The notes beneath the pieces are model-generated. The model did not search any database. It saw only the letters and a program-made list of their open reading frames with translations, and was not told the origin of the DNA. Both the position numbers and the translations under genes were made by a program. 64,000 nucleotides of DNA from Nitrospirota bacterium. Its GTDB lineage: Bacteria > Nitrospirota > Thermodesulfovibrionia > Thermodesulfovibrionales > BMS3Bbin05. Positions 12,609 through 58,221 of this stretch are shown one piece after another (the first letter of the stretch is position 1; each line of letters starts with the position of its first letter). Location of the stretch: assembly GCA_020351835.1 (NCBI GenBank), contig CP070669.1:102782-166781 (forward strand), in the 5' to 3' direction.

Positions 12609-14585
12609 CTACCCCTTAACCGTCACCTGAGCATTGCTCTTTTCAAGCATGTTCTTCAGGTTAGGGAAGTTGTCCTTCATGTGGGGTATATGCATCGCCA
12701 TCATGAACTCCTTTTCGAACTCCGGTTCAATAGCTATCTCCACAAAGTTCACCCATCGGGCCTTTTCCTTGGCCTCCAGCCTCTTCGCCCTGCTCAGCAA
12801 GGTCATTATGGCTCCGTCCCCGGCCGCGTTACCCACGGCGTATACTTTCTCAATATCACAGTCAGGGAACATCCCCAGCGTTAACGCCGATCTTGTATCT
12901 ATATGGCTGCCGAACGCACCTGCCAGTACAACCCGGTCAAGTGTCGTTATACCGAGCTTTTTCATCATAAGCTTTGCTCCGGCATAAAGGGCTCCCTTTG
13001 CGAGCTGAAGTGCACGCACATCTCCCTGGGTTACCGTAATATCCGCTCCGATCGATGTCTCATCAGCCCATGCAAGTACGTATTCAGGTTTGCCGTCTGC
13101 ATCCAGTCTTACCCTGGGTGTATCCAGATCCTTCACTATCTTGCCGGATTTGTCTATTATTCCTGCTTTGAACATTTCGGCGATAACATCGATTATCGCT
13201 GATCCGCATATTCCCTTCGCATCGATCTTCTCTATATGGGTATGCCAGTCCGCCTTTCCTATCACCTTGTATCTGGGCTCCTTTGTGTCCGGATCTATCT
13301 CTACTGTTTCTATCGCTCCGGGTGCAGCTCGCATTCCGAACTTTATCTGTGCTCCTTCGAACGCCGGGCCTGTAGCACAAGATGTTGAGTATACCCCGTT
13401 CCTGTTCCCGAGAAGGAGCTCACCGTTAGTTCCAATATCGATTATCAGGACCATATCATCTACGTTATAAGGTTCTTCAGCAATAAGCACACCTACATTA
13501 TCAGCGCCAACGAAACCCGCCTCTATAGGAAGCACATGCACATAGGAAGCGGGATTTATATTTATATTAATATCGCGCGCCTTAATGTCCATCGGGTCCT
13601 GCACGGCCGGAATAAATGGTGACCTTCCTATATACACCGGGTTAAAACCAAGGAATATATGGTGCATTGCGGTATTGAAAACGACGGTCATGTCCACTAT
13701 CTGGTGTCCTCCGTCCGACCCGTCTATCTTAATCTCTGAGGTTATCTTGTCGATTATTTCGTTCAATCCTCCGATTATCGCTTTCTGCATTGTCTCAAGA
13801 CCGTCACTGTTCATCATCGCGTATGTTATCCGGGACATGACATCTTCACCATATGGTACCTGAGGGTTCATCATGGACTCGGTATTAAGCACCTTGCCCG
13901 TAACAAGGTCGCATAGATAAGCTGCAACTGTTGTCGTGCCGACATCAATAGCGATACCATATGTATTCTCAATGAATCCAGGTTCAACCTTTATTATTTC
14001 CCTGCCTTCCCTGACTGTCACGGTACACTTCCATTCACCTTTGCGCAGAGCATCCTGAAGGTCCTTTTGTACCACATAATCTATGATGATCCCCTCTAAT
14101 CCGTATTGCTCCTTTAAGAGTTCTCTGATCCTTTCATAATCTCCCTTTGAGAGATCATGGAGTGTCGGGGGCTCCATCTCTATGAAATATTTCCTCACGG
14201 AAGGATCTATAGGAATGGTTATATCTTTTGCCGCTTTTCTTACGATCTGCTTTCCCGCCCGTGATTTCTCGGGAACAAATAGCTTCACATCTCCATGAAC
14301 GGTAGCAGCACACGCAAGCCTCATCTGAGGCCCTTCCTCAGATTTTATGAACTTTTTTTCAACTTCCGATAATTCGCTCAGATGCGACATCCTGGAGTCC
14401 ATTGCGTCCTTCTCAAAGTATCCTTCCTCTACCCTGACCTTGCATTTCCCGCATGTACCCTTTCCGCCGCAGATGGATTCAAGGTCAACGCCAAGACCCT
14501 GTGCTGCCTCAAGAAGCGTCTTGTTCTCCTCTATTTCACCCCTGCTTCCAGAGGGTTGAAAGTTCACTTTATATTTCTTGCTCAT
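12609..14585 (-). CDS. Corrinoid reductive activase (RamA/AcsV-type: [2Fe-2S] ferredoxin plus ASKHA ATPase)
   Basis: N-terminal plant-type ferredoxin motif CGGKGTCGKCKV...LACA. Actin-fold phosphate motifs GIAIDVGTTT and IDIGTNGE. 658 aa. Confidence 0.85.
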   Translation of the reverse strand: MSKKYKVNFQPSGSRGEIEENKTLLEAAQGLGVDLESICGGKGTCGKCKVRVEEGYFEKDAMDSRMSHLSELSEVEKKFIKSEEGPQMRLACAATVHGDVKLFVPEKSRAGKQIVRKAAKDITIPIDPSVRKYFIEMEPPTLHDLSKGDYERIRELLKEQYGLEGIIIDYVVQKDLQDALRKGEWKCTVTVREGREIIKVEPGFIENTYGIAIDVGTTTVAAYLCDLVTGKVLNTESMMNPQVPYGEDVMSRITYAMMNSDGLETMQKAIIGGLNEIIDKITSEIKIDGSDGGHQIVDMTVVFNTAMHHIFLGFNPVYIGRSPFIPAVQDPMDIKARDINININPASYVHVLPIEAGFVGADNVGVLIAEEPYNVDDMVLIIDIGTNGELLLGNRNGVYSTSCATGPAFEGAQIKFGMRAAPGAIETVEIDPDTKEPRYKVIGKADWHTHIEKIDAKGICGSAIIDVIAEMFKAGIIDKSGKIVKDLDTPRVRLDADGKPEYVLAWADETSIGADITVTQGDVRALQLAKGALYAGAKLMMKKLGITTLDRVVLAGAFGSHIDTRSALTLGMFPDCDIEKVYAVGNAAGDGAIMTLLSRAKRLEAKEKARWVNFVEIAIEPEFEKEFMMAMHIPHMKDNFPNLKNMLEKSNAQVTVKG

Positions 14586-14621
14586 TCAGCATCCTCCATT
14601 GAATTGATCGAATATTTGATC

Positions 14622-15281
14622 TTATGTCGCAACCGACCGTTGTCTCCTTTCATTGCCGTTCCTGCCGTAAGGGCAGATGTTTATACATAACCCGCAATTC
14701 GGCTTGTCATTCACCGCTTTAGAGTTCTCCTTATACGACCTGCATCGTTCTGTCATTATAAGTTCCGGAAAAGGCTCTTTCCTGGACCATGTATCACCTG
14801 TGATAGCCTTTGATGGGCAGTGCTCAACACAAAGCCTGCAATTACCGCAAAGGCTCTCCCTTATAGGTTCATCGGCCTTAAGAGGCGCATCTGTCAGTAC
14901 CGTCGCTAATGAGAGCCTCGGACCAAATCTTTCACTGATGAGAAGTCCGTTCCTGCCTATCCACCCCAGTCCGGCACAGGTTGCCGCCACTTTATGAGTA
15001 AAAAGCGGGTACAACTTCGATTGGAACTTATCCTTGATCCTGTCCGAATCCGGAGGAATACAAAAGTATCTGTGTCCCATGTCCTTAATATAAGATGCGG
15101 CAACTTTTTGGATAATGCCGATCTTTTCCAGTGTGTTCTCTTTAAGGTTACCTTTGATCCCTATAGAAATAGCCTTTCCAAGATGACTGATGTCCTCTTC
15201 GAGAGCCTCTTCAACAACGGCAAAGCCTACTATAGTGGCCCCTTCATCCAGCAGTATCTTTCGAAGGTCCTCGCCGATCAC
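14622..15281 (-). CDS. Short QueG/RdhA-family protein with 2x[4Fe-4S]
   Basis: GLGWIGRNGLLISERFGPRLSLATVLTD, followed by CGNCRLCVEHCP and CGLCINICP. Only 219 aa. There is a 4-nt overlap with the corrinoid protein gene. Confidence 0.7.
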   Translation of the reverse strand: MIGEDLRKILLDEGATIVGFAVVEEALEEDISHLGKAISIGIKGNLKENTLEKIGIIQKVAASYIKDMGHRYFCIPPDSDRIKDKFQSKLYPLFTHKVAATCAGLGWIGRNGLLISERFGPRLSLATVLTDAPLKADEPIRESLCGNCRLCVEHCPSKAITGDTWSRKEPFPELIMTERCRSYKENSKAVNDKPNCGLCINICPYGRNGNERRQRSVAT

Positions 15282-15970
15282 TCCTTGTTCTTTCCTTCTG
15301 CATCATCTTTCATCTCTTTGAGGGAACCTATCATCTTGATAGCATCAGAAAGCGCGTTAGTAGCATCATCCGCATACCCGTCCGCTCCCCATTTCTCTGC
15401 AATATCCTTTGATACCGGGGCACCACCTATCATTATTTTCACGTTCGGGTTCTTTGCCTTGAGGTTATCAATTACCTTCTGCATTCCCACCATGGTAGTT
15501 GTCATCATGGCAGACAAACATACGAGTTCCGAATCCGTCTTTATCTGTTCTTCAACGAACTGGTCAAGAGGGACATCACGCCCAAGGTCATATACCTCAA
15601 ATCCCGCGACATCGAACATCATCTTCACAATGTTCTTGCCTATGTCGTGCACATCTCCCTCGACCGTCCCTATCACCACTGACCCTTTAACCCCCAGGTC
15701 AAGCTGCTCAACGTGAGGCTTAAGTATATCCAGGCCGGCATAAAGTGCGTCCGCGCACATTAAAAGCTCCGGGACAAAGTATTCCTGAGCCTCGAACAAC
15801 TTCCCTACCTCCTGCATACCTACTACAAGTCCATCGAAAATGGCATCATTGGCATTTATACCTTCATCCAGGACCTCTTGTGCCCCCTCCTTGGCGGTAT
15901 CTTCATCATATTCTATGACCGCCTGCTTCAGCTTCTCCAGAAGCTCCTTCTTTCTCTCTTCTGTCGCCAT
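15278..15970 (-). CDS. Methyltransferase cognate corrinoid protein (B12-binding)
   Basis: Helical cap domain followed by GTVEGDVHDIGKNIV (DxHxxG), LSAMMTTT and IMIGGAP. 230 aa. Confidence 0.92.
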   Translation of the reverse strand: MATEERKKELLEKLKQAVIEYDEDTAKEGAQEVLDEGINANDAIFDGLVVGMQEVGKLFEAQEYFVPELLMCADALYAGLDILKPHVEQLDLGVKGSVVIGTVEGDVHDIGKNIVKMMFDVAGFEVYDLGRDVPLDQFVEEQIKTDSELVCLSAMMTTTMVGMQKVIDNLKAKNPNVKIMIGGAPVSKDIAEKWGADGYADDATNALSDAIKMIGSLKEMKDDAEGKNKE

Positions 15971-15973
15971 TTC

Positions 15974-17008
15974 TTACCTCCTGTGTTCTTTTACTGTGTC
16001 TATCATTGCTTTAAAATTCTCGGGCGGTACTGTAGGCCAGATATCGCATCCGGGCCATACCGCGCTAACTCCGTCATCTATACATTTTGTGATAGCTTCC
16101 CTTATGAGGTCAGGTGTCCCTGCAACGAGCACATTATAGGGATCAAAGTTCCCGAACACTAAAGCATCATTTCCAAGCTTCTTTCTGGTCTCCGTAATAT
16201 CGTTCTTTTGGTCAACACTAATGGCGTCTGCCCCCGACTCCATCATGAACCCTACGATATCATTTGTCTTACCGCACACATGAACCACGGATGGGACATT
16301 AAGCTCTTTGATGATATTTTGCAGGTGGGGCAGGATCAGGTTCTTGAAGACCCGGGGACTCAGGACATCGGATGTCGCTCCCATCTCCCTTACCGTAATG
16401 AAATCTATCCCCGCATCTTCATATACCTTAGCTACCTTAACTATAACTCCTGACAATATTTCAAGGAGCTTTCCCACCTTATCAGCTTTCTTAAAAGATA
16501 GTTTCAGCAGGTCATTAAGCTCCATTATCTGTCCGGCCAGGGTAAAAGGTCCAAGCACATATGAACCTACCGGTATCTCACCCCCGGCCTCCTTTTTAGC
16601 TATTCCTATTGCCTCGTGCATCAGGGGAACCCTGCCCCTCCCGACCAGGTCTTCAGGAACTGATATCTCCATCTCATCTTCGTTCTTTATCACCTTCTCC
16701 TTAATGGTCGGATAAAGAAGGTCCTCGGAGTGAGGATAGGTGTTGATAACCGCCCCAAGTGCTTCAGCTTCTACACACAGATCGAACGGGAGCACACATG
16801 AATCAAATCCGAACAACTTCGGCGTAGTCACCGCCGTCTCAGCCATCTGCTTAGCGTCGAGATGGACCTGGGCAAACTTATATCCCAACTCGTCGAGACC
16901 GGTAGTAGTAACATTTCCCATACCGCTGAAACAGGGTACCCTGTCGGTCTCCTCTTTCTTGAATAGCCTGGTTACTCTGTCTTTAGAGCTCATCTCAGAT
17001 ACAGACAT
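15974..17008 (-). CDS. Uroporphyrinogen-decarboxylase-family methyltransferase (MtaA/MtbA/MtsA-like)
   Basis: 344 aa. Candidate Zn ligands VVHVCGKT (HxC) and VWPGCDIWP (C), as in methylcobamide:thiol methyltransferases. Confidence 0.85.
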   Translation of the reverse strand: MSVSEMSSKDRVTRLFKKEETDRVPCFSGMGNVTTTGLDELGYKFAQVHLDAKQMAETAVTTPKLFGFDSCVLPFDLCVEAEALGAVINTYPHSEDLLYPTIKEKVIKNEDEMEISVPEDLVGRGRVPLMHEAIGIAKKEAGGEIPVGSYVLGPFTLAGQIMELNDLLKLSFKKADKVGKLLEILSGVIVKVAKVYEDAGIDFITVREMGATSDVLSPRVFKNLILPHLQNIIKELNVPSVVHVCGKTNDIVGFMMESGADAISVDQKNDITETRKKLGNDALVFGNFDPYNVLVAGTPDLIREAITKCIDDGVSAVWPGCDIWPTVPPENFKAMIDTVKEHRR

Positions 17009-17064
17009 TATTCATCTCCTTTCAATCATAATTAATGGTATACCTATCGTAAATTTGTTCCTTT

Positions 17065-18027
17065 TTATTTCTTTGCTTTCTTCCTTCCTCCGCCTTCTTC
17101 CAGCTTCTGTATGAACTCGGCAAACAGCTTTCTGATCGGCAGGTCTTCGTTCCCGGGTATCATTCCGGTCTCATCATATATAAAAGTAGACAACAGAGTA
17201 TGGGCAGTAGCCACTGCAGGGAAGATCCTCGAAGCCGTTACAATGGGCCCGTAGAAGTTAAAATCGCTCCATATGGCCGACGCCATTCCCTGAGCTACCG
17301 CATCCATGGCCCTGAAACCGTCGAGTCCCCATATCTCCCTGGCCTCTTTCCACATATGTGTGCCATTAGAGTATGCCCCCCCGCACGGCAGCCCATGCTT
17401 TTCCTTTATTATCCTGTTAGCTATCAACGAGAATGATGTCGACGGCAGGTTCATCACCGAGGTATCTACGATCACCGTATCAAAGCCATCTGCGCCCTGG
17501 GAATAGATCGATTCGAACGAGCTTAACCTTCCTGCAGGTGACTGGTCCTGGTCGTCGAACGCCTGAATAACGACATGTTTTATTCCGAGGTCCTTCAGCC
17601 GCTGGACCTGACCTTTGATGTCCTTATCCCATGGAGTAATGCTGTTATAAAGGAACTTGTCCTGTACTCCAAGCTTTGCGACATACTCTGTTGCCTTAGC
17701 CCTTTTCTCTGCTACCCACATGTCTATCCCAAAGGGCATCTCTGTCGTCTCGAGAAAGAAATCTATATAAACCTGTGCTTCCTCAGGTGTATTAGCAACC
17801 ATTGCGACCATACCGGGGATCCCGGTAGACCGGTTGAGCTCTTCCTGCTTTCTTATAAGCTCTGCTGCTCTCTTGCGGTCGAACTTGCCCGACTTTCTGT
17901 CATCAAGGATCCTGTCCTTATTATGGAACATGGACGCGATCATTAAAGGCGGGTTTTCCCCGGGTCTTCCCCCGACCTTGATCCCTGCTATATCAAAAAC
18001 CTTCTGCTCTGACTTTAAATTGAACAT
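17065..18027 (-). CDS. MtrH-like methyl-pterin:corrinoid methyltransferase
   Basis: N-terminus MFNLKSEQKVFDIAGIKVGGRPGENPPLMIASMFH closely parallels archaeal MtrH (MFKFDKKQEVFEIGGVKFGGQPGEYP...). 320 aa. Confidence 0.85.
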   Translation of the reverse strand: MFNLKSEQKVFDIAGIKVGGRPGENPPLMIASMFHNKDRILDDRKSGKFDRKRAAELIRKQEELNRSTGIPGMVAMVANTPEEAQVYIDFFLETTEMPFGIDMWVAEKRAKATEYVAKLGVQDKFLYNSITPWDKDIKGQVQRLKDLGIKHVVIQAFDDQDQSPAGRLSSFESIYSQGADGFDTVIVDTSVMNLPSTSFSLIANRIIKEKHGLPCGGAYSNGTHMWKEAREIWGLDGFRAMDAVAQGMASAIWSDFNFYGPIVTASRIFPAVATAHTLLSTFIYDETGMIPGNEDLPIRKLFAEFIQKLEEGGGRKKAKK

Positions 18028-18062
18028 CTATGCTCCTTTCAAGAAATGATGATGAGTTCTCT

Positions 18063-18093
18063 TATCAAATAAAGAGTCCTGCAAGGGCAGGAC
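18063..18093 (-). terminator. Intra-operon intrinsic terminator candidate
   Basis: Minus-strand RNA reads GUCCUGC-CCUU-GCAGGAC followed by UCUUUAUUUGAUA. Located between the AhpD-like gene and the mtrH-like gene. Confidence 0.5.
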
Positions 18094-18110
18094 GATCATT
18101 CGCCCTGCCC
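18085..18110 (-). promoter_or_regulatory. Alternative (antiterminator-like) hairpin overlapping the terminator 5' arm
   Basis: Minus-strand RNA reads GGGCAGG-N12-CCUGCCC. Its 3' arm shares 18085-18093 with the terminator stem, so the two folds are mutually exclusive. Confidence 0.4.
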
Positions 18111-18126
18111 TCACAGTTAAGGTCTA

Positions 18127-18642
18127 TCAGTAAACGCCGTGATCGAACTTTGTTTCGGGTAGATATTCCCAATCCTCTCCATTACGGTATTTCGCCTCAA
18201 TATCGAGACACTTCAGCGCGTACTCGAACGCATACGGAATGCCTGGTCCGCCCGGAACAAAGCCGGCCAGTATCATTCCTACTGCAGCCGCTTCAAAGAT
18301 CTCTCCGGTCGTAGCTCCCGCGTCTATAGCCGGAATAACGTGGATGATACACCTCGGTGAGCAGTATGCAACGCCTCCGGACATGAACATCAGCTCCTTT
18401 ACCTTCTTTGAGAGCGCACCGTCGCCGAAGATGCTCTCATAGAAATCAGCGAACGTCTTTCCGGGGACAGGTGTTACAGTGTTGATGATCTTGAACATGC
18501 GAGGTACAAAACCGCAATGTTCCTTCATGTACGCATTGACTTCATCTACCGACATCTTTGATGCATCTGACATAAGCTCCTCCTTCATTTCATTTCCCGG
18601 CTCACCGGCCAGAAATTTCTTAATGCTTTCAAAAATACCCAT
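18127..18642 (-). CDS. Carboxymuconolactone-decarboxylase/AhpD-like family protein
   Basis: AYCSPRCIIHV, a CxxxCxxH variant of the AhpD CxxCxxxH core. The ORF opens with GTG at 18648, but ATG at 18642 sits 5 nt after a perfect GGGAGG. Confidence 0.7.
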   Translation of the reverse strand: MGIFESIKKFLAGEPGNEMKEELMSDASKMSVDEVNAYMKEHCGFVPRMFKIINTVTPVPGKTFADFYESIFGDGALSKKVKELMFMSGGVAYCSPRCIIHVIPAIDAGATTGEIFEAAAVGMILAGFVPGGPGIPYAFEYALKCLDIEAKYRNGEDWEYLPETKFDHGVY

Positions 18643-18728
18643 TGTCACCTCCCTTTACGGGAACTTAAGCTACCTGCCTCACCTCCTCTCATATACAAAC
18701 ACACATAATATTTGGATTTCGTTCCTCT

Positions 18729-19757
18729 TTATAGCTTCCACTCTGTTGCAATCTGAATGAACTTCTGAATGTTCTCATAAGGAACCGTTGGCGGGATGTC
18801 GCATCCCGGCATAAGAACAAAAGCACCATCGGTACCGGCTGTTTCTATTATTTTTTTGCATGAGCTCTCAACATCGCTTGCACTTCCCTGCAGCATTATC
18901 TGTACAGGATCTACGTTGCCGCCAAAACATATTTTGCCGTGCAATACTTCTTTAGCCTTTGCTATATCGGTCTTGTGATCAAGACTGATGCAACTGGCAC
19001 CAGTGTCAGGGAAAAGCTCAAGCCTGTCAGTAGTATTCCCGCAAATATGCAAAAGAGTATGTGCGTTCTTCGATTTGGCCCAGTCTGTGAACTTCTTGAG
19101 GGCTGGCACAGCGAACTGCTCGAACTGTTTTTTGGAGATAAGATCACCCGAAGCGGTCGGGTCTGCAAGGCTTATCACCTCAAGCGTTCCGTCGCTGACT
19201 ATGGGTTCGTAAAGATGGATAAGGAGATCACATGCAAAATCAACTATCTTCTCGACGAGAGCCGGTTTCTTGAACGTAGCCTTCATCATGGCCTCTTCAC
19301 CGACAAACCGGGCACCAAGTGTAAAAGGTCCCCACGCAGTGAGGGTAACGATATATTTATCGCCTATCTCCTTTTTTGTTCTCCGCAATGCCTCTTTTGT
19401 AGTATTAATGGTCTCGTCTTTATCAATATCTTCAATATTAAGACCATCTATCTCTTCTTCTGAACTTATGAGATGATCTTCGAGATCAGGGGCACCTACC
19501 TCCCGGAACTTGATCTTTCCTCCAAGAGCTGAGGCATGAAAATTGTTGTATCCCGACCCTGCATAAACGATATCGCACTTCAGCCTCTCACTGTTCTCTA
19601 CGAGCACTTTTGTCATCTTGCCGGCATCCTTTGAGATCTCTTCAAAGGTAGTCCCTGAGCTGTTAATGCTCCACATGCCTCCGCCAAAAAGAGTTACCGG
19701 TACCCTTTCAGGCTTGCCCCCTTCATAAGCCTTTAGAATTATTTCCCTCGGTGTCAT
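18729..19757 (-). CDS. Uroporphyrinogen-decarboxylase-family methyltransferase (MtaA/MtsA-like), paralogue 2
   Basis: 342 aa. LLHICGNT (HxC) and LMPGCDIPP (C) are candidate Zn ligands. Strong SD (GGAGGAG). Confidence 0.85.
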   Translation of the reverse strand: MTPREIILKAYEGGKPERVPVTLFGGGMWSINSSGTTFEEISKDAGKMTKVLVENSERLKCDIVYAGSGYNNFHASALGGKIKFREVGAPDLEDHLISSEEEIDGLNIEDIDKDETINTTKEALRRTKKEIGDKYIVTLTAWGPFTLGARFVGEEAMMKATFKKPALVEKIVDFACDLLIHLYEPIVSDGTLEVISLADPTASGDLISKKQFEQFAVPALKKFTDWAKSKNAHTLLHICGNTTDRLELFPDTGASCISLDHKTDIAKAKEVLHGKICFGGNVDPVQIMLQGSASDVESSCKKIIETAGTDGAFVLMPGCDIPPTVPYENIQKFIQIATEWKL

Positions 19758-19769
19758 ATACTCCTCCTT

Positions 19770-20135
19770 TCAAATAAGAACAGAACTTCTGTTTCGAATT
19801 ATTTCTTTGAACATTGCCAGGAAACTGTCTATCTCTTTGGGAGATCCTGTGACATATACTCCATCTTTTAGCCTGGTCTTTTCCGATACGCTATCTGTCA
19901 AAAGAAATATCGGGGCAGATGAGATCGTATCCTTCATTATTGAAGCAGCCTCATACGCATTAAGTCCTATATTCCTTGTGTCGAGTATTACTGCGTCGTA
20001 CCTGTTTGCAAGAAACTCTCTTACTGCATCTGATATATATTCGATAGTAACAACCTCTATACCCCCGTCCCGGATAGGACCATACAGCTCCTTTATAAGC
20101 AACGGTTCCTGAGAGCACAGAAGGATCCTTTTCAT
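19770..20135 (-). CDS. Stand-alone receiver-like (CheY-fold) protein, degenerate
   Basis: 121 aa. AVILDTR retains an acceptor-like Asp, but the N-terminal acidic pair and the usual MP motif are missing. Confidence 0.6.
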   Translation of the reverse strand: MKRILLCSQEPLLIKELYGPIRDGGIEVVTIEYISDAVREFLANRYDAVILDTRNIGLNAYEAASIMKDTISSAPIFLLTDSVSEKTRLKDGVYVTGSPKEIDSFLAMFKEIIRNRSSVLI

Positions 20136-20149
20136 CGCAGGAAATTAAG

Positions 20150-20165
20150 AGCAACTTCAATGCCA
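20150..20165 (-). promoter_or_regulatory. Sigma-54 (-24/-12) promoter
   Basis: Minus strand reads TGGCAT-TGAAG-TTGCT, with exact GG-N10-GC spacing. It is the only full match I found by eye on either strand. It is intergenic, directly upstream of the 13-gene operon. Confidence 0.6.
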
Positions 20166-20237
20166 GATCCAATTCCCTTTATAATGCTTTGCTTACAGCG
20201 TATAGGGCAGTTGACCGATAGCAGTTCTGAGTAAATC

Positions 20238-20266
20238 TTCCCCATAGACTGAGGTATTTTTCCCCA
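20238..20266 (-). repeat. Direct repeat TTCCCCA x2 (22-nt period), possible activator binding site
   Basis: TCTTCCCCATA at 20236-20246 and TTTTCCCCACA at 20258-20268 (plus-strand text). These lie 75-100 nt upstream of the sigma-54 -24 box, in the divergent intergenic region. Confidence 0.3.
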
Positions 20267-20345
20267 CATCTTTTATCAATACTGCTAATGAAACATTGCG
20301 CTCCCGCACTATTCAATGGGGCACAAATATTGCTTTTCCGTTGAT

Positions 20346-21218
20346 ATGAGAACAACCATTGTATGCGGAATGCTGGGCTCAGGAAAAACCACTTTTATAG
20401 GAAACGTTCTGAAAGAGAGCAAAGAGAGGACCGTTGTATTGGTCAACGACTTCGGAAGCGCTGGAATAGACGGTGAGATACTGTCTGTAGACGGCATAGA
20501 TACGGTAGAACTTCCGAGCGGTTGCGTATGTTGCACACTGAAATTCGATCTCATAACGACAATAGAAAAGATTATAAAAAAATTTGACCCTCTTAGCCTC
20601 TATATCGAACCAAGCGGTGTCGCCTCACCTTCGGGTGTTTTAGAAGCGCTCGAGTCATTGAACATATCAAATGTGCTCGTGGTTGGTATAATTGATGCCA
20701 CAGAATTCATAGATATATACGAATCCGAGATGTACGGCAACTTCTTTATTGACCAGGTCGCACGATCGGACGTCTTATTGATCAATAAAACTGACCTTAC
20801 CGGATCCGGGAATGTCGAAAGGACACTGAAAATACTCCAAGAGATGAACGGTAAGGCCATAATGATACCTACCGTAAATGCCGAGATGGACCATATTCCG
20901 AAACACCGGGATAATATAAAGAAGGTTACCGGCAGTCCCTGCCATGATGTCCATCTCAGCTCCCTGTCCTTTATCATTAGAAATAAGTCGCCTCTATCCG
21001 TCTTAAATGACCTGTTCGAGAATTTATCCTCGGGCACTTACGGGAATGTCGTCAGGGCAAAGGCACTGGTCCATACCGATGAGGGGCCTTTCCGCTTTGA
21101 CCTGTCGTTCGGTCATCTATCCGTAGAACCGTTCAGAAGCAGCATTACCGACAGCCGCCTCGTTGTAATTGGCAGTTCTCTGAATGAAATGAAGTTATCA
21201 GAAGATATTGATAATTAA
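20346..21218 (+). CDS. CobW/COG0523-family GTPase metallochaperone
   Basis: P-loop GMLGSGKTTF, GCVCC motif, NKTD. The ORF opens at 20316, but MRTTIVCG at 20346 matches the family N-terminus. Confidence 0.85.
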   Translation: MRTTIVCGMLGSGKTTFIGNVLKESKERTVVLVNDFGSAGIDGEILSVDGIDTVELPSGCVCCTLKFDLITTIEKIIKKFDPLSLYIEPSGVASPSGVLEALESLNISNVLVVGIIDATEFIDIYESEMYGNFFIDQVARSDVLLINKTDLTGSGNVERTLKILQEMNGKAIMIPTVNAEMDHIPKHRDNIKKVTGSPCHDVHLSSLSFIIRNKSPLSVLNDLFENLSSGTYGNVVRAKALVHTDEGPFRFDLSFGHLSVEPFRSSITDSRLVVIGSSLNEMKLSEDIDN

Positions 21219-28705: not shown

Positions 28706-29950
28706 CTACCTCTCTTCCCATTCCAGACCGCTCTCGATCAGCTGACCAAGCCTCTCCGCTGCTTCGGGATCAAGTTCTTTCAGCCTCTCATGCATCTCGA
28801 CTGCTTGTTCCCTTCTGTCAGTACTTACATATACTATTCCAAGTCCTTCAATGGCACTTACATTGTTAGGATCGATATCCAATGCTTTCTGAAAGGATTC
28901 GATAGAGCTCTTTGCCCTGTCCATATATATATCAAGCAGACTGAACCCAAGCCCGGCGTGATAATCGGGCACATCAGGGGATATCTCAACCGCTTTCTTA
29001 TACTCTTCATAGGCTTTATCGGGGAACCTCATGTTAAGAAGTGTCGCCCCGTACCACGCTCTAAGATCAGCATTGTCCGGGAACATAGCAAGTCCCTTTC
29101 TGAGCAGTTCTGCCGCTTTGCCGTAATCATCAGCATCATAATAAGAGGAGGCCTCATTGATGATATTGTCAACGGGAGCAGGGTTCACGCTCACATCCTG
29201 AGTGACAGAGTTCGCTTTAGAAAGCTCATCTGCTGAGACCTTTCTTCCATCTATTACCATAGTATCGCTTTCAGTCTCCTGTCCGTATTGTGATACTATC
29301 ACTTCGTCCTTCATGAATCCTTTCAGTATAATAGCGTCATCGAGGACTTTCCCGCTTTCGTTCTGAAAATCCCTTGCAAGGCCATAATTCTCGAACTTGC
29401 CTATCCTCACGCTGTAGAATCTGCCTACCATCTCGATCCGCAAATACTTCAGTTCGTCGGCTATCAATACTCTTACCAGTGAATCAAACCTCTCCTCCGC
29501 TTCCTTCCTTATACTGTAGTTCCCGAGCTGGAGCGTATAATATTCCTCCAGTTCAGGAGCTGACGGAGTATAGGCCTTTACAATATTAAGCTTTTCGTAA
29601 TCCAACTGTCTAAGTATAAATGCATCGGGAACGAAAACCCTTACACGCTCCATCAAGCTTATAGCGTCGGCTTTGTCCGGCAATCGGCCTATCCTGATAA
29701 TAAAGTACTTATTCCCTTTTTCTATCCTGAGATGTTCCAGGTCATTATCGCCGAGCTTTTTGCTTAGCATTTCATATTGTTTTGCAGCAAACTTTATTGC
29801 GGTCAACGAGTATGTTCCGGCCTGAACAGAATAGAACTTCTCAGACGCGTGTGAGTACACAGGCATGCCCAATAATGCACATGTCAGGAGTAAGACACAG
29901 ACTATCTCAAGTGACTTTTCCCTGATCCTCCGATCATATTTGCATACCAT
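28706..29950 (-). CDS. SPOR-domain (x2) plus TPR-repeat protein with N-terminal anchor
   Basis: Two YS/TLQ.G.Y...RIE..G..Y..RIG segments typical of SPOR. C-terminal TPR-like repeats (AELLRKGLAMFPDNADL...). Confidence 0.7.
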   Translation of the reverse strand: MVCKYDRRIREKSLEIVCVLLLTCALLGMPVYSHASEKFYSVQAGTYSLTAIKFAAKQYEMLSKKLGDNDLEHLRIEKGNKYFIIRIGRLPDKADAISLMERVRVFVPDAFILRQLDYEKLNIVKAYTPSAPELEEYYTLQLGNYSIRKEAEERFDSLVRVLIADELKYLRIEMVGRFYSVRIGKFENYGLARDFQNESGKVLDDAIILKGFMKDEVIVSQYGQETESDTMVIDGRKVSADELSKANSVTQDVSVNPAPVDNIINEASSYYDADDYGKAAELLRKGLAMFPDNADLRAWYGATLLNMRFPDKAYEEYKKAVEISPDVPDYHAGLGFSLLDIYMDRAKSSIESFQKALDIDPNNVSAIEGLGIVYVSTDRREQAVEMHERLKELDPEAAERLGQLIESGLEWEER

Positions 29951-32471: not shown

Positions 32472-33223
32472 AGTTTATTAAAGCGATACGCGTATGGCAA
32501 AGACACCTTACGGTATACTCAAAGCTTTACAAGTCCAGCCTGGTTCTTAACTTCATAGAGCCCGTTCTGTATCTTGTCGCTCTCGGTCTGGGTCTTGGAG
32601 CTTTCGTACGAGAGATAAACGGGATGCCGTATCTGAACTTCATCGCTCCCGGGATCGTCGCTTCTTCGGCCATGTTCGCCGCAACATATGAATGCTCCTA
32701 CGGGACATATGTTCGCATGACTTATCAGAAGACGTTCGACGCTATACTTGCTACTCCCGTGAACCTGGATGACCTTATTGCGGGAGAGGTGATATGGGGA
32801 GCAACAAAGAGCGCTCTTTACGGTTCTATTATTATAATTGTAATCTCTTTGTTCGGCCTTGTAGAGTCGCCGCTGATAATACTTTCGATACCGCTTCTCT
32901 TCTGCATTGGTCTAATCTTCTCAGAGATATCGATCATATTCGTAGCTGTCGTGCCGGGGATAGACTCATTCAACTATTTTTTTACTCTATTTATGACACC
33001 TATGTTCTTATTTTCCGGCATATTCTTTCCAATTGATAATCTTCCGGGGATCGTAAATGTAATAGCCTACTTCACACCACTGTACCATATGGTAAATATT
33101 ATGAGGGCTTTTGCCGCTGGTGAACTATTAGCGGTCATTAAGGATATAGTATGGATACTGGTCGCGATATTCTTGCTCGCTCCAATACCGTTCGGTCTGA
33201 TGCGGAAGAGGATAATCAAGTAG
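32468..33223 (+). CDS. ABC-2 type transporter permease
   Basis: 251 aa with 6 predicted TM helices. There is a 4-nt overlap with the ATPase gene. Confidence 0.88.
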   Translation: MKFIKAIRVWQRHLTVYSKLYKSSLVLNFIEPVLYLVALGLGLGAFVREINGMPYLNFIAPGIVASSAMFAATYECSYGTYVRMTYQKTFDAILATPVNLDDLIAGEVIWGATKSALYGSIIIIVISLFGLVESPLIILSIPLLFCIGLIFSEISIIFVAVVPGIDSFNYFFTLFMTPMFLFSGIFFPIDNLPGIVNVIAYFTPLYHMVNIMRAFAAGELLAVIKDIVWILVAIFLLAPIPFGLMRKRIIK

Positions 33224-33250
33224 GCTGGCTAAATGATGTGACTATGAGGA

Positions 33251-33934
33251 TCAGATATCCCCGCCGGGATTTCTGCTCCTGACAAAATCTTCTATTAAGT
33301 TCCGGTTATCCTGCGAAAGATCGATGAACTTAATGCCGTATAAACGAACATCCTGTGACTTCTTTTCCTCTCTCACCACCTCACCGTTTACGGAAATATT
33401 TACCGACCTCAGGAAAAAAGCGCACTCTATATCAACGCCGGGTTCAAGAACCTTCTCTGTCTCGAGGAGCACCCCTGAAACACTCAGATTGTGAGATGTG
33501 CAGAAGAATGACTCCTTCCTGATCTTGCTCTTCACTGTAACTTTCATTAATACTCTGTAACTTTCGCGACCGTGGATATTAAGCAGGTCATTTACTTGTG
33601 AAGAAAGGTCTTTAGGTGACAAAGGCTTCGAGAGGTATGCATTCGCTCCGCATGTATTACTTCTGTCCTTGGCCGACTGGCTCTCAAATCCAGTAAGGAT
33701 CACCGATATGTTCTTTAGTTCTGGCCTCTTACGCAAAGAAGAACAAAGCTCATCTCCGTTCATTCCCGGCATATCCAGTTCCGATATAATGACATCGACC
33801 GGGTCCTTCCTTATCAATTCCAGGGCCTCCTGTGCGGATTCCACTCCACTGACCTGTAATCCCTGTTTTGTAAGAGATGTAACTTTCTTCTCAAGAGAAG
33901 ATTTGAGTGGATCTACTATAAGGATCTTCCTCAT
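33251..33934 (-). CDS. Receiver-PilZ two-domain protein (atypical receiver)
   Basis: MRKILIVDP...DVIISELDMPGMNG...LSKP, then a PilZ-like half (RESYRV...HNLSVSGVLL). The ORF opens at 34006, but the REC fold starts at 33934. Confidence 0.8.
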   Translation of the reverse strand: MRKILIVDPLKSSLEKKVTSLTKQGLQVSGVESAQEALELIRKDPVDVIISELDMPGMNGDELCSSLRKRPELKNISVILTGFESQSAKDRSNTCGANAYLSKPLSPKDLSSQVNDLLNIHGRESYRVLMKVTVKSKIRKESFFCTSHNLSVSGVLLETEKVLEPGVDIECAFFLRSVNISVNGEVVREEKKSQDVRLYGIKFIDLSQDNRNLIEDFVRSRNPGGDI

Positions 33935-34009
33935 AGCATGATTATAGCAGGATTGCTGATTTTGTATAAATGAACACGTACCGTTGTTAGAGAAAAACCT
34001 CTGCACAGG

Positions 34010-35041
34010 TCACTGGACCTGGTCCCAATACCCCTTAGGCATATCCTTCGCCAGCGCCAATGCTCCATTGGCTCCTGAGAAGACAGGATCGGTCGCAACC
34101 GTTACCTTGCCGGACCCGTATTCCTTAAGGCGCCCCTCTATATACTCACGTATCCCTCGTATCTGGCTCCCGCCCCCGGACAGTATCACGTTATCCCGTA
34201 CCTTGGCCTGGTATTCCGGATCGAACTTTGCTATCATTTCTGTAACCGTCTCGATTATGGCCGGCAATATGGACTCGCATGCACGTTTGACCTCATCGGT
34301 TATATCGTGTTCTGTAGGTTTACCGGCCACAGGTATCTCGACCTTTATCGGTGCACTGCTATTGCCAACAAACCCGTTGCTTTCCTTAAAACCCTTTACC
34401 ATGTTCATGTTAAAGGTAGATCCCGGGTATTTCTCCGTAAGGAAATTGTTCAATTGCTGATCGATGTAATCTCCGGCGTTGATTATTGTCTTCTGGTCCT
34501 CATCAGCAGGTAACGTTCCGTGCATGATACAAAAGTCTACAGTACCCGCACCAATATCTATAACGATGGCGTTGTTAAGCATATTAAGTCCGTAAGCTAC
34601 CGCAAAAGGTTCCGATACTACCATGATCGAGTCTGTAAAACCGGAAACAGCACTTCTGATAGCCAACTTATTCACCTTGAATGATTCTGCAGGCACACCA
34701 ACAACAGCATTGATCTTCTGTCCCTCAGAAGGATTAACCAGCTTTATCAGATAATGTATCAGTTCCTTAACTGCTTCTGCATCTTTTGCAGTTCCTTCTT
34801 TCAGTACACCCTTCTCAAGCGGCCTGTAAAGGTCAAGAGATAACCTGTTCTTAAGGGCTTCACGACCGAACAGCACGGATTTGCCCAGTACTTTTGCAGA
34901 TATAAAGTCCTTGGGCCACCCGACATAGCTCTCGACCCATTTCTTCTCACCATTGCTGGCCGCTATTGCACTACTGGATGTTCCGAGATCGATCCCGACA
35001 TAAAGAACTTCATCTGCGCTCTTCATCTCACCTGGCTGCAT
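34010..35041 (-). CDS. MamK-like actin-family filament protein
   Basis: GIDLGTSSSA, VGWPKD, VVSEPFAVAYG, IDIGAGTVD, LSGGGSQIRG. Collinear by eye with MamK along the whole length. AAGGAGA SD 8 nt upstream. Confidence 0.8.
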   Translation of the reverse strand: MQPGEMKSADEVLYVGIDLGTSSSAIAASNGEKKWVESYVGWPKDFISAKVLGKSVLFGREALKNRLSLDLYRPLEKGVLKEGTAKDAEAVKELIHYLIKLVNPSEGQKINAVVGVPAESFKVNKLAIRSAVSGFTDSIMVVSEPFAVAYGLNMLNNAIVIDIGAGTVDFCIMHGTLPADEDQKTIINAGDYIDQQLNNFLTEKYPGSTFNMNMVKGFKESNGFVGNSSAPIKVEIPVAGKPTEHDITDEVKRACESILPAIIETVTEMIAKFDPEYQAKVRDNVILSGGGSQIRGIREYIEGRLKEYGSGKVTVATDPVFSGANGALALAKDMPKGYWDQVQ

Positions 35042-36092
35042 AGTGCGTTTCTCCTTTATTAAAGTTCTTGTTAAGGTACTTGACCACTCCCTCTTCGAGA
35101 TAATTTGCTATCTCTTCTCTGTAAAGCTCAGCGTTCAGCTTCATCTCTTCGCTCTCATTGCTCAGGCACGATATCTCAGTGAGAACGCTCGGCACATCGA
35201 CCCCGAGCAGCACGACAAACGGTGCTGTCTTTATCCCGTAATCCAGTATCTCCTTATTGCTCTTGCTAATGTTCCCATACAAGCTTTCCTGTATGAATGT
35301 GGCGAGCTGCTTTGACTCCTGGAACTTCATTGTATCGCCGATCTTCATTACAACGTTCCTGTAAGCACTCAACGTATATTCCGTCCCTTCATTCTCTTTC
35401 TCAGCCAGTTTCAGCGTCTCCTCATCGGAATAGGCCCCAAAATAATAGGTCTCTATTATATTTATCGGCTTACGCGGAACGTAGTTCACGTGTATAGATA
35501 TGTACAGATCGGCGTTGTGTTTATTAGCGAACTCGATCCTGTCGTTAAGGGGTACAGTTACATCGTTCTCCCTGGTCATGAGTATCTGGTAGTTCTTGAA
35601 CCTGGTAAGTTTATCTCTAAGCCTCTTTGCAATATCGAGGGTGATATCCTTCTCTTCAGTGCCCATCTTACCGATAGCACCGGGATCATCTCCCCCGTGG
35701 CCGGGGTCTATTATTATTGTCCTGACCTTGAAACCGAAAATGTTCCAGATCGGCTGCATCGAATCTGCAAAAAGAGATCTGTAGTATGAAAGGTCCTGTC
35801 CTGAATCAGAAACCTGCATCAACCGCTGAGGGCTGAAGGAAGAGGTTACCTGCGGTGGGATCTCCGGGCTAACTGCTCCGACATTAGCAAGTTCGGAGGA
35901 ATCGAACCTCCCTATGAGCAGAAAGAAGACCATCGAAAAGAGCACAACGGAACTCTTCATCAAGACCCCCATCTTCCTGTACCCGCTACTGCGAGGGCGA
36001 CGGCCCAGCATCACGAGGTTTTCCTCATAGACACCCTTTAAGATGGCTCTGCGCCTGCGGGCACCACTGCCATTAATACTGCCTAAGATCAC
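35028..36092 (-). CDS. N-acetylmuramoyl-L-alanine amidase (Amidase_3, AmiA/B/C-like) with an Arg-rich N-terminus and TM anchor
   Basis: IIIDPGHGGDDPGAIG, ADLYISIHVN, TAPFVVL..VDVPSVLTEISCLSNESE. GTG start after GAGGGGGA. There is a 14-nt overlap with the MamK-like gene. Confidence 0.88.
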   Translation of the reverse strand: MILGSINGSGARRRRAILKGVYEENLVMLGRRPRSSGYRKMGVLMKSSVVLFSMVFFLLIGRFDSSELANVGAVSPEIPPQVTSSFSPQRLMQVSDSGQDLSYYRSLFADSMQPIWNIFGFKVRTIIIDPGHGGDDPGAIGKMGTEEKDITLDIAKRLRDKLTRFKNYQILMTRENDVTVPLNDRIEFANKHNADLYISIHVNYVPRKPINIIETYYFGAYSDEETLKLAEKENEGTEYTLSAYRNVVMKIGDTMKFQESKQLATFIQESLYGNISKSNKEILDYGIKTAPFVVLLGVDVPSVLTEISCLSNESEEMKLNAELYREEIANYLEEGVVKYLNKNFNKGETHYAAR

Positions 36093-36563
36093 ATATCCCC
36101 CTCTAAAGGATATAGTTACGAGAAGATAGGTAAAAGTATAGCACAGAACATTCTGCTAATGAATAAGATGCCTTTCCGGCCTGCGGAACTACCCCCGTTC
36201 CGCCGTATTCTGTCTATAGCTTTCACATACCTCTCCCTTACGGAAATCGTCCGCAACACTAAAGTTTGAGCAAGAAATATACCTGTAATGCGTCTCTTAG
36301 GCTTTTTTGCAATTTTATCCTTAACTTATTGTTTATATTGTAATAATTGATAATACAGCTTCGCACGTACATATATCCAAAACTATGGAAGTGACAATTT
36401 ATGTCATTTATTGTGTAGTTGCGGGTATTTCTGCCCTAGTTCTCAAAGTCGCTTATTATATGAAGAACGTATACAATATATAATCATTGAATATTTCCTG
36501 TTTTCTACTGGTCGGGCATCTTTTTACCTGCTCTCTTCGGCCCATTTCCTATATAATCTCATC

Positions 36564-37376
36564 ATGAAGTCAGTGGCTTACGGTGATCTGTTGAAGTTGT
36601 CGACCGAAGCGGCCCGAAAGGCCGGTAGCCATATAATGAGCAACCTGGGCGGGATCACATCTTCAGACATAGTGCTCAAACAGACATCTGACTTTGTGAC
36701 AAGGGTGGATAAAGAGTCTGAAACCCTGATCGTGAACCTTATAAGGTCCCAATATTCAGATCACTCGATCGTTGCTGAGGAATCAGTTAATGAGGAAGTG
36801 TCAGGTTACAGGTGGATAATAGATCCCCTGGACGGCACCACCAACTTTATACATGGCTATCCGGTTTTTTCCGTCTCCATAGCGGTTGAACATGCGGGAA
36901 ACATAATTACAGGTGTAGTCTTTGATCCGACAAGAGACGAGATGTTCACTGCAGCAGAAGGCTCCGGAGCGCATCTTAACGATAGGCCAATAGCCGTCTC
37001 AAAAGTTAATAGCATTGCTGACTCCCTTATCACAACAGGATTCCCCTTCAGAAGAAAGGACCATATAGATAAATATCTTTCAGTATTCAAGGAAATGTTC
37101 ATGCAGGTAAGTGATATCAGGAGAGCCGGCAGTGCGGCACTGGACCTGTCTTATCTGGCATGCGGAAGATGTGACGGTTTTTTTGAGATAGGACTTAGCA
37201 TCTGGGATATCGCGGCAGGCAGTCTGCTTATTTCTGAAGCCGGAGGCATGGTATCGGATTTTACAGGAGGTTCCGACCACCTTGCTACCGGGAATATCGT
37301 AGCCGGCACGCAAAATATACATGCATTGATCCTCAATACGGTAAAAAAGTCCTTTCAAGGCACAATAGACAGCTAG
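36564..37376 (+). CDS. suhB: Inositol monophosphatase family protein (SuhB-like)
   Basis: EESV, WIIDPLDGTTNF and WDIAAG motifs. The family N-terminus begins at MKSVAYGDLLKLSTEAARKAG. The extension back to 36411 looks spurious. Confidence 0.88.
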   Translation: MKSVAYGDLLKLSTEAARKAGSHIMSNLGGITSSDIVLKQTSDFVTRVDKESETLIVNLIRSQYSDHSIVAEESVNEEVSGYRWIIDPLDGTTNFIHGYPVFSVSIAVEHAGNIITGVVFDPTRDEMFTAAEGSGAHLNDRPIAVSKVNSIADSLITTGFPFRRKDHIDKYLSVFKEMFMQVSDIRRAGSAALDLSYLACGRCDGFFEIGLSIWDIAAGSLLISEAGGMVSDFTGGSDHLATGNIVAGTQNIHALILNTVKKSFQGTIDS

Positions 37377-55128: not shown

Positions 55129-55500
55129 ATGCAAGTAGGCTTTAATACAAATATACCCTATAAGGGTAAGGTCTATCATGTGCAGACCGAAGATACTCCG
55201 GAGACATTCTCACTGATCTCACTTCTTTATTTTAAGGGGGCCATTCTTGCATCCAGAAAGACGATATACGAACACCTGAAGGATGAACCGGACTATAAGG
55301 AAAAGGTCCGTGAACTGATGAAGGAGCAGCACAAGAACCTTATCAAGGAGCTTATCAACGGTAAGGTAACTGAAGGAGAACAAACAGCTGAACCGGTGGT
55401 TGAAATGAAGAAGGTCGAAAAGCAGGACGACTCGAAAAAGTACAAGAGCCTTGATGATATCCTCATAGATTATATAATAGACAAGGCAGGCGATAAATGA
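55129..55500 (+). CDS. Hypothetical protein
   Basis: 123-aa ORF, translationally coupled (ATGA) to ftsE. No domain recognised. Confidence 0.55.
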   Translation: MQVGFNTNIPYKGKVYHVQTEDTPETFSLISLLYFKGAILASRKTIYEHLKDEPDYKEKVRELMKEQHKNLIKELINGKVTEGEQTAEPVVEMKKVEKQDDSKKYKSLDDILIDYIIDKAGDK

Positions 55501-56159
55501 TCACTTTCTCCAACATCTCAAAAATATACGAGAACCACGCTGCTGTTAAGGACATCAACCTTCAGATAAACAAGGGTGAGCTTGTCTTCGTCACCGGAGC
55601 AAGCGGGGCAGGAAAAACCACCCTCCTAAAGCTCGTTTATGTCGCGGAAAAACCGGACACTGGCAGTATAGTGATAGCCGGCTATAACACATCTACGCTT
55701 AAAGAGAAAAGTATCCCCTTCTTAAGAAGAAATATAGGGGTAGTGTTCCAGGATTTTAAACTTCTTTCCAACAAAACTGTATACGATAATATCGCTCTAG
55801 CCCTCAGGATCAGAGGTGTTCAGGAGGGAGAGATCAAGAACAGGGTAAGCAATGCCCTGAAACTTGTAAACCTTAGGCACCGGTCTGAGAGCTACCCTCT
55901 TACGCTGTCTGGCGGAGAACAGCAGAGGGTTACCATAGCGAGAGCGATCGTTGACGAACCGACGGTCCTACTTGCTGATGAACCTACCGGGAACCTTGAT
56001 AGCGGTAATGCCAGGAGCATTATGGATATATTCAGGGAGATCAATGCCAAGGGCACAACGATAATGATAGCCACCCACAACCATGATCTTTTCAGGAACA
56101 CAGGCCTGAGAGTTGTGCAGCTTGAAGAAGGCAGGCTTATAGGGGAGACCGTAGGATGA
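55497..56159 (+). CDS. ftsE: Cell-division ABC ATPase FtsE
   Basis: GASGAGKTT, LSGGEQQRV, LLADEPTGNLD. Followed by ftsX. Confidence 0.93.
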   Translation: MITFSNISKIYENHAAVKDINLQINKGELVFVTGASGAGKTTLLKLVYVAEKPDTGSIVIAGYNTSTLKEKSIPFLRRNIGVVFQDFKLLSNKTVYDNIALALRIRGVQEGEIKNRVSNALKLVNLRHRSESYPLTLSGGEQQRVTIARAIVDEPTVLLADEPTGNLDSGNARSIMDIFREINAKGTTIMIATHNHDLFRNTGLRVVQLEEGRLIGETVG

Positions 56160-58186: not shown

Positions 58187-58221
58187 AGGCACCCCCGGTA
58201 AAGGAGAAATAAGCAAAAGAT

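Follow-up and report, generated by a model that had tools for sequence, protein, structure and literature searches.

Only a handful of bacterial actins have an established cellular role, namely MreB, FtsA, ParM-like proteins and MamK, and membership of the MamK family is taken as a sign of magnetotaxis. In Escherichia coli, the cytoplasmic actin-family protein FtsA works in a loop with the bitopic protein FtsN, which consists of a basic tail, a transmembrane (TM) helix, a disordered linker and a periplasmic peptidoglycan domain, and with the amidases AmiA, AmiB and AmiC, which are soluble periplasmic enzymes targeted by AMIN domains. In Bacillus subtilis, the actin homologue MreBH directs where the wall hydrolase LytE acts. 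RodZ, a bitopic protein, binds MreB through its cytoplasmic N-terminus. Here we describe a locus from a Nitrospirota metagenome-assembled genome (MAG) in which the genes of a membrane-anchored N-acetylmuramoyl-L-alanine amidase and a MamK-family actin form what appears to be a genuine, deeply conserved functional pair outside the magnetosome context. The locus comprises three minus-strand open reading frames (ORFs), the last of which encodes a receiver-PilZ protein (REC-PilZ), and lies in a stretch of 64 kb, hereafter the window, of a 2.29-Mb contig.

MamK homologues were already noted in non-magnetotactic bacteria (10.1101/682252, citing Lefèvre 2013), and only 227 of 2798 MamK-like metagenome sequences were found on scaffolds with other Mam genes (Uzun et al., PMC7449369). 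BeeR of Verrucomicrobiota (PMC11929497), Bbp of large bacteria (PMC10580974) and Mad28 (PMC12713370) show that MamK-like actins also exist outside magnetosome function. BeeR shares only 25–30% identity with MamK, and its N-terminal domain is disordered; Bbp is intermediate between MamK and MreB. In the accessible parts of the respective papers, neither BeeR nor Bbp is linked to an amidase. Our literature search, which included work on cable bacteria and Thermodesulfovibrio, found no publication linking a MamK relative to an amidase or to a SPOR domain. The amidase–actin pair appears to be undescribed; the kinds of system it represents, MamK-family actins and cytoskeleton-guided wall hydrolysis, are known.

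Evidence for the pair comes from gene linkage. Loci were collected by a scan of species-representative genomes (5 loci), a metagenome scan and individual protein look-ups, and the metagenome scan with a 20-sequence profile gave 80 loci with actin identities of 58–68%. When the window proteins were compared by tblastn with the first 89 loci, an amidase homologue was found directly upstream of the actin in 86 of them, that is, in all 86 with upstream room; in the other three, fewer than 160 nt of sequence precede the actin on the contig. Of the 83 pairs with resolved boundaries, 74 have overlapping genes (median gap –17 nt, largest gap 16 nt). Divergent actins are amidase-linked as well (P0242, 54% identity; P0310, 35% identity), and a reverse search that started from the amidase P0210 gave the same arrangement. 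Flanking genes serve common metabolic or housekeeping functions and vary by locus: Desulfobulbaceae have polA (DNA polymerase I) and citrate synthase there, another lineage has DNA ligase, and the neighbours at the P0210 locus of a third lineage encode peroxiredoxin and LPG synthase. Hence, the amidase–actin linkage is specific and does not reflect general synteny. Named carriers belong to Nitrospirota/Thermodesulfovibrionales, Desulfobulbaceae, Candidatus Aminicenantes and Ca. Sulfobium. The tail-bearing amidase of one closed Aminicenantes genome (CP070627.1; L105:4001-5219) is followed by only a 35-codon actin remnant, 86% identical to residues 13–47 of the window actin, and then by an unrelated gene on the opposite strand; either the actin was lost naturally or the assembly is faulty here.

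All three ORFs were found in the window where the initial annotation had placed them, and its arithmetic holds, with an overlap of 14 nt between amidase and actin and a gap of 3 nt to the long form of the third ORF (Table 1). The actin gene starts 14 nt inside the amidase gene, at an ATG with an AAGGAG ribosome-binding site ahead of it in the amidase ORF. Such an overlap predicts that translation of the actin gene is coupled to that of the amidase gene. The GTG start of the amidase is preceded by a Shine-Dalgarno-like GAGGGGG and is backed by an alignment of 67 homologues.

Assignment of the actin to the MamK family follows from several comparisons. Pfam matches MreB_Mbl and other actin-fold families, and the NCBIfam model NF040964 ('MamK family') scores 440.4 bits against a cut-off of 400 bits, aligning residues 13–342 to profile positions 1–330 of 335. 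Scores fall far below the cut-offs of the MreB models NF010539 (85.5 vs 293 bits) and TIGR00904 (71.5 vs 366 bits) and below that of the BeeR model NF053558 (228.4 vs 530 bits). The nearest solved structure by sequence is MamK of Magnetospirillum magneticum AMB-1 (5jyg and 5ljv; E 4e-90), with 42% identity and no gap over 330 residues, and the motifs GIDLGTSSSA, VGWPKD, DIGAGTVD and LSGGGSQIRG, by which the protein had originally been likened to MamK, are all present. In 20 clade members, residues D18, G20, T21, D162, G164, G166, T167, G289, G291 and S292 are invariant, and E144 is conserved in at least 90%. The phosphate-1, phosphate-2 and adenosine motifs and the catalytic Glu and Asp are intact and align with the corresponding MamK residues. 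The protein is predicted to be an ATPase that polymerises into filaments. It lacks both an N-terminal amphipathic helix and a membrane anchor. Unlike AMB-1 MamK, the window actin lies outside a magnetosome cluster, and its invariable partner is a peptidoglycan amidase, not MamJ, MamY or a magnetosome membrane protein.

Phylogeny sets this actin apart from its magnetosome relative. A HMMER scan of 1.84 billion cluster representatives returned 176 clusters (50% identity) with E < 1e-30. In a neighbour-joining (NJ) tree of these representatives, the amidase-linked core clade was recovered with a bootstrap of 100/100, and its members share at least 58% identity with each other and at most 50% with other MamK-family representatives. 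AMB-1 MamK, the sole labelled magnetosome MamK in this crude tree, falls in a different clade. The 'MamK family' label of NCBIfam is also carried by proteins of Planctomycetota MAGs and of [Eubacterium] cellulosolvens. Most members of the actin clade from P0001 to P0120 are annotated as 'rod shape-determining protein MreB' despite scores far below the MreB cut-offs, and this annotation is misleading and unsupported by the MreB family models.

Other branches of the family were also seen. P0250 (45% identity; L093:5001-6697), from another MamK-family clade, has no amidase and no magnetosome genes in its surroundings, and the gene after it encodes a coiled-coil-like protein of 178 aa rich in Glu, Lys and Gln; this suggests that different MamK-family clades pair with different adaptor proteins. 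A further well-populated clade (P0245, P0249, P0251, P0252, P0257-P0261, P0265, P0269 and P0277) carries N-terminal extensions of 440–900 residues, and no Pfam domain was found in the extensions of the five proteins scanned. No amidase was seen beside the MamK-family proteins P0243, P0246, P0248 and P0264, whose contigs span only 1.4–3.4 kb.

The amidase had been described as a membrane-anchored Amidase_3 protein with an Arg-rich cytoplasmic tail, and both features were recovered: Pfam identifies the domain, a hydrophobic helix precedes it, and the basic N-terminus contains 10 Lys or Arg against 2 Asp or Glu in residues 1–44, so that the tail should be cytoplasmic. An alignment of 67 full-length partners gives a common layout of a variable extreme N-terminus, a tail motif, a basic stretch, the hydrophobic helix, a linker (residues 63–105) that is hypervariable in length and sequence, a conserved pre-domain segment and the catalytic domain. 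A hydrophobic stretch occupies the same position in all aligned homologues. The tail motif has the consensus R..ILRGVYEENL.I.G, with N25 and G30 conserved in at least 90%. Information per column amounts to 2.67 bits in the tail-motif window (residues 12–33), 1.26 bits in the linker and 3.09 bits in the catalytic domain. A strict pattern of the motif matched 103 of 120 homologues, and the motif is still recognisable in the divergent amidase of L090 (RALLQQAVYNNVDVIKG). An AlphaFold2 (AF2) model from a 45-sequence alignment has helices at residues 8–28 and 41–61 and disorder at 62–101. The hydrophobic moment of the motif is low (0.07–0.36) and its conserved residues are acidic or polar; these features hint at a protein-docking peptide and make a membrane-binding amphipathic helix less likely. 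A signal peptide was rejected, the N-region being 44 residues long with a conserved motif.

The catalytic domain resembles that of the cell-division amidases. The residues that bind Zn or act in catalysis, H132, E147, H201 and E306, do not vary among 45 homologues. The closest matches in the PDB over the whole domain are E. coli AmiA (8c2o), AmiC (4bin) and Bartonella AmiB (3ne8), and these alignments span an insert of ~40 residues including a conserved LAE.EN segment; the unregulated amidases CwlV and LytH align over the first ~100 residues only. The domain has 211 residues against 174 in the Pfam model, and the insert region (206–243) is of low confidence in the AF2 model. In AmiA, AmiC and AmiB this insert forms an auto-inhibitory helix. 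The window enzyme is thus predicted to be of the AmiA/B/C type and auto-inhibited. Its scores against the NCBIfam equivalog models of AmiA, AmiB, AmiC and CwlD are far below the cut-offs. A Pfam scan of the protein found no AMIN domain, and the TM anchor with its cytoplasmic peptide appears to replace this targeting domain.

Table 1. Features of the amidase–actin locus, in window coordinates
Feature	Coordinates	Strand	Remarks
N-acetylmuramoyl-L-alanine amidase, bitopic	35028..36092	-	354 aa; GTG start; Pfam Amidase_3 E 1e-43
Cytoplasmic tail motif	36000..36053	-	residues 14-31, RRAILKGVYEENLVMLGR; proposed actin-binding peptide
Transmembrane signal-anchor	35907..35960	-	residues 45-62; basic segment before; N-in topology
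Amidase_3 catalytic domain, periplasmic	35085..35717	-	residues 126-336; Zn-binding/catalytic residues intact; predicted insert as in AmiA/B/C
MamK-family actin-like ATPase	34010..35041	-	343 aa; ATG start; NCBIfam MamK 440 bits
Third ORF, long form	33251-34006	-	251 aa; Response_reg + PilZ
Pseudo-receiver + PilZ protein, short form	33251..33934	-	227 aa; Response_reg 1.7e-19, PilZ 2.4e-15
Extended -10 element TGcTATACT, amidase-actin operon	36135..36143	-	~45 nt upstream of amidase start; promoter role inferred
Sigma-70-like promoter TTTATA-18-TATAAT, TG upstream	33941..33970	-	10/12 consensus positions; ends 7 nt before ATG

A third gene recurs in many of the other loci, and it differs from that of the window. 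Flanking ORFs were clustered across 97 non-redundant loci, and among the 81 informative for a third gene, 31 have directly after the actin a gene for a receiver, a TM helix, a Pro/Ala/Lys-rich linker and a C-terminal SPOR domain (hereafter REC-TM-SPOR). It starts 20–185 nt after the actin stop (examples are L011:6054-7283, L017:3745-5352 and L065:6032-7339, with ~28 further loci) and is confined to one large actin subclade. Pfam found Response_reg and SPOR in six of seven examples scanned and SPOR only in the seventh. The acceptor Asp is replaced by Asn or Lys in 22 of 24 of these receivers; thus, like the receiver encoded in the window, they are pseudo-receivers. The ligands of SPOR domains are denuded glycan strands as left by amidases, and the gene therefore ties the module to amidase-processed, typically septal, peptidoglycan.

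By analogy, the logic of amidase, actin and REC-TM-SPOR protein would match the loop of FtsA (actin), FtsN (tail-TM-linker-SPOR) and amidase. Both combine an actin with a bitopic architecture, an AmiA/B/C-type domain with its probable insert and, in those 31 loci, a bitopic SPOR partner. They differ in that the window actin is of the MamK family, tail and membrane anchor are parts of the amidase itself, a pseudo-receiver takes the place of the FtsN tail on the cytoplasmic side of the SPOR protein, and the components are encoded in one small operon. MreBH–LytE and MreB–RodZ are precedents for an actin-guided hydrolase and for binding of a tail to an actin. However, LytE is a secreted endopeptidase whose gene is unlinked to mreBH, and RodZ has a helix-turn-helix domain and no enzyme domain.

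A membrane protein of ~80 aa with the motif RKPKLFF.LLGLGL.LAGLFYL also recurs beside the module in one subclade (L039:2320-2568, L041:7263-7511, L050:1875-2120, L051:1688-1933, L018:5944-6246 and others), upstream of the amidase, after the REC-TM-SPOR gene or right after the actin. In the window, a protein with an N-terminal SPOR domain and TPR repeats is encoded on the same strand at 28706-29950 (-), 3.3 kb from the three genes; it scores weakly against the SPOR hidden Markov model (HMM) of the clade (20 bits) and is not of the REC-TM-SPOR type.

We favour the reading, with a probability of roughly 55%, that the two genes form a conserved operon in which the actin filament docks on the amidase tail and so sets where peptidoglycan is cleaved, probably at the septum. 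In this model, the actin would polymerise under the cytoplasmic membrane and bind the tail motif, and the filament would cluster, position or move the amidase, so that peptidoglycan would be cut at a defined place, most probably the division septum. The tail and TM anchor would stand in for the septal-targeting AMIN domain of E. coli AmiB and AmiC. Catalytic activation would probably still need a LytM-type activator because the regulatory insert appears to be present. A cluster at 55497-59544 (+), 20 kb away, encodes FtsE, FtsX (FtsX_ECD), a protein with a coiled coil and Peptidase_M23 (EnvC/PcsB-like) and a CtpA-type S41 protease. FtsE, FtsX and EnvC-like proteins are the canonical activator system of auto-inhibited AmiA/B-type amidases, and by analogy this cluster is a candidate activator of the window amidase. 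In the large sister subclade, the SPOR domain of the acquired pseudo-receiver protein should bind denuded glycans made by the amidase, and in many lineages this partner may read the amidase product and report back through its cytoplasmic pseudo-receiver. In the narrow lineage of the window, the REC-PilZ protein may add a c-di-GMP (cyclic di-GMP) input from outside the conserved machine. Of the earlier proposal, the coupling of the actin with the amidase is supported by the conserved pair and the tail motif and is more general than proposed, and the inclusion of the receiver-PilZ protein as a core part is not supported.

Several points weigh against this reading. The evidence is comparative throughout, and contact between tail and actin is deduced from gene linkage and motif conservation. 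The choice of septum over side wall as the likely site of action draws on the resemblance to AmiA/B/C and on a SPOR partner that occurs in another subclade. The AF2 model of the amidase is moderate, with a mean predicted local distance difference test (pLDDT) of 62, and the tail and the regulatory insert are its low-confidence parts. Every named homologue of the amidase-linked clade, among the cluster names examined, comes from a MAG. Moreover, P0242 and P0310 are amidase-linked, yet group with the core clade with an NJ bootstrap of only 18–23%, and we did not join them to it.

More tentatively, the pair together with the pseudo-receiver-TM-SPOR protein could be a self-contained cytoskeletal machine for septal or localised peptidoglycan splitting in Nitrospirota, Desulfobacterota, Acidobacteriota (Aminicenantes) and related phyla, acting in parallel to the FtsA-FtsN-amidase loop or replacing it; this might be the ancestral role of the MamK family, with magnetosome MamK recruited later. 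We regard this wider proposal as possible and clearly less secure than positioning of the amidase by the filament.

Among the alternatives, the one that survives best is that of a single three-gene unit, in which the REC-PilZ protein places the filament or the amidase under the control of c-di-GMP or a phospho-relay, as the initial annotation had proposed. We consider it unlikely. The three genes lie on the same strand, with no terminator-like site between actin and REC-PilZ. Pfam agrees with the earlier naming of the third gene, placing Response_reg at residues 28–138 and PilZ at 147–243 of the long form. The trio is kept in three relatives with 80–82% actin identity. However, REC-PilZ is confined to this small actin subclade and is absent from all 89 loci of the first set, including L001, the closest GTDB relative (76% actin identity), which otherwise shares the order IMPase, amidase, actin, ABC-2 transporter. 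Moreover, the relatives with REC-PilZ keep the whole neighbourhood, IMPase and ABC-2 transporter included, so that general synteny is enough to explain its retention there. Only the first two genes make up the conserved unit, and the receiver-PilZ gene is a local add-on.

The start and the expression signals of the third gene also speak for its independence. The three orthologues are called at 223–226 aa and begin with MKKILI, the equivalent of window Met25; hence, the window gene most likely starts at ATG 33934, and the long form is probably not the real extent of the gene. The spacer after the actin stop is then 75 nt, and the 3-nt gap is spurious, produced by an in-frame GTG further upstream. 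A promoter-like element precedes this ATG in the window (Table 1), and L102 and L103 have TTTACA-17-TATAAT at the same place (L102:3762-3806), the element ending 7–8 nt before the ATG across the window and these two loci. No Shine-Dalgarno sequence was found between promoter and ATG in the window or in the L102/L103 orthologue. Given how close the promoter lies to the ATG and that a Shine-Dalgarno sequence is missing, REC-PilZ probably has a leaderless transcript, possibly separate from that of the pair.

Of the two signals proposed for the third protein, one has become less probable. The position of CheY D57 is Glu and that of D13 is Pro in the window receiver and its three orthologues. Because the acceptor Asp is replaced by Glu in all four sequences, which excludes classical phosphotransfer, control by a phospho-relay is unlikely. 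The PilZ motifs are intact and conserved in the orthologues (RESYR, 147–151; NLSVSG, 173–178; long-form numbering), and binding of c-di-GMP by this half is plausible because of these RxxxR and NxSxxG motifs. The protein thus resembles pseudo-receiver and PilZ-type c-di-GMP receptors in its receiver fold and its RxxxR and D/NxSxxG motifs; it differs in the Glu at the acceptor position, in the loss of the second acidic residue and in not being conserved with the pair. In addition, the window encodes a GAF-GGDEF diguanylate cyclase (5163-6263, +) and a single-domain PilZ protein (6846-7199, -), which would provide a c-di-GMP network that REC-PilZ could plug into.

A gene with a receiver domain after the actin is a recurrent theme, since REC-TM-SPOR occupies the same position in another subclade, and this is a point in favour of the initial annotation. 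The receivers of the two genes are not specifically related. A shared origin was rejected, as the REC-SPOR HMM gave the window receiver 26 bits against 58 for an unrelated NtrC-type regulator, and the two receiver genes appear to have been recruited independently.

A different possibility is that the filament is the effector and the amidase mainly an anchor, so that a MamK-like track tethered to membrane and wall positions other cargo, such as an organelle, an inclusion or a complex. Filaments of the MamK family are known cargo-positioning tracks (PMC10653835), the actin has no membrane-binding element and is always paired with a membrane protein, and other clades of the family have other partners, such as the coiled-coil protein that follows P0250. 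Against this, the four Zn-binding and catalytic residues are invariant and no other part of the amidase is as conserved as its catalytic domain, which argues that the enzymatic activity itself is under selection. Clustering of flanking ORFs revealed no cargo-type gene conserved beside the pair, and the recurrent third gene carries a SPOR domain that recognises the amidase product. We consider an anchoring role improbable.

In another reading, the two proteins are co-expressed without contact, with the tail bound to another partner (for example FtsA, FtsZ or a divisome protein) and the actin acting independently. Conserved operons sometimes reflect co-regulation only, and binding of tail and actin is itself a prediction. 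Nevertheless, the linkage holds in every informative locus, with overlapping genes and down to 35% actin identity, and the tail motif occurs within an amidase family whose members adjoined an actin in every case examined. We give mere co-expression little chance.

That the actin is a MamK paralogue which belongs to, or recently derived from, a magnetosome cluster elsewhere in a magnetotactic Nitrospirota genome is hardly credible: its score lies above the NCBIfam MamK cut-off, magnetotactic lineages exist in Nitrospirota (PMC8353452, PMC10278575) and the gene survey covers 64 kb of the 2.29-Mb contig, but its orthologues form a separate clade (100/100) among ordinary unrelated genes in several phyla, the MamK label extends to Planctomycetota MAGs and [Eubacterium] cellulosolvens, few MamK-like metagenome sequences accompany other Mam genes (227/2798, PMC7449369), and no magnetosome gene lies within the window. 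For this last point, Pfam gave no hit to magnetosome-typical families in the ~58 larger ORFs of the 64 kb, in line with the earlier statement that no mamA/B/E/I/M/O/P/Q, mad or man genes are nearby. A magnetosome role of the window actin is very unlikely.

Our results bear on how MamK-like genes are interpreted. They delineate a large, well-defined branch of the MamK family that is unrelated to magnetosomes and hard-wired to an amidase with a conserved cytoplasmic peptide. Surveys of magnetotactic bacteria based on mamK will pick up this amidase-linked clade and must exclude it. If the filament indeed positions the enzyme, the pair would represent a new, through-membrane way for a dedicated cytoskeleton to direct a periplasmic wall hydrolase, a natural experiment parallel to the FtsA-FtsN-amidase-SPOR circuit and a candidate ancestral role for the MamK family. 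Moreover, the tail motif offers a short, testable binding peptide.

The remaining content of the window is that of an ordinary chromosome, with genes for ribosomal proteins, two-component systems, corrinoid methyltransferases, uvrC, tgt and pdxA. The cluster of corrinoid-dependent methyltransferase genes at 12609-21218 encodes a RACo-type activase, an MtrH-like protein, two URO-D-like methyltransferases, CobW and a PocR-PAS hybrid kinase, and is unrelated to the amidase–actin finding.

A scan of 32900-36700 for a riboswitch upstream of the operon, for example of the c-di-GMP type, gave no Rfam match at E <= 1. In support of the extended –10 element ahead of the amidase (Table 1), the block TTCTGTGCTATACT is unchanged across the window, L101, L102 and L001, and the intergenic DNA around it has diverged. 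Further upstream, in the intergenic region that separates the amidase from the IMPase gene, a perfect inverted repeat, TGACA-N5-TGTCA (36392-36406), lies inside an 18-nt block, AATGACATAAATTGTCAC. The window shares this block with L101 and L102, and L001 has it in almost the same form, with diverged neighbouring DNA; the repeat may be an operator in a divergent promoter region.

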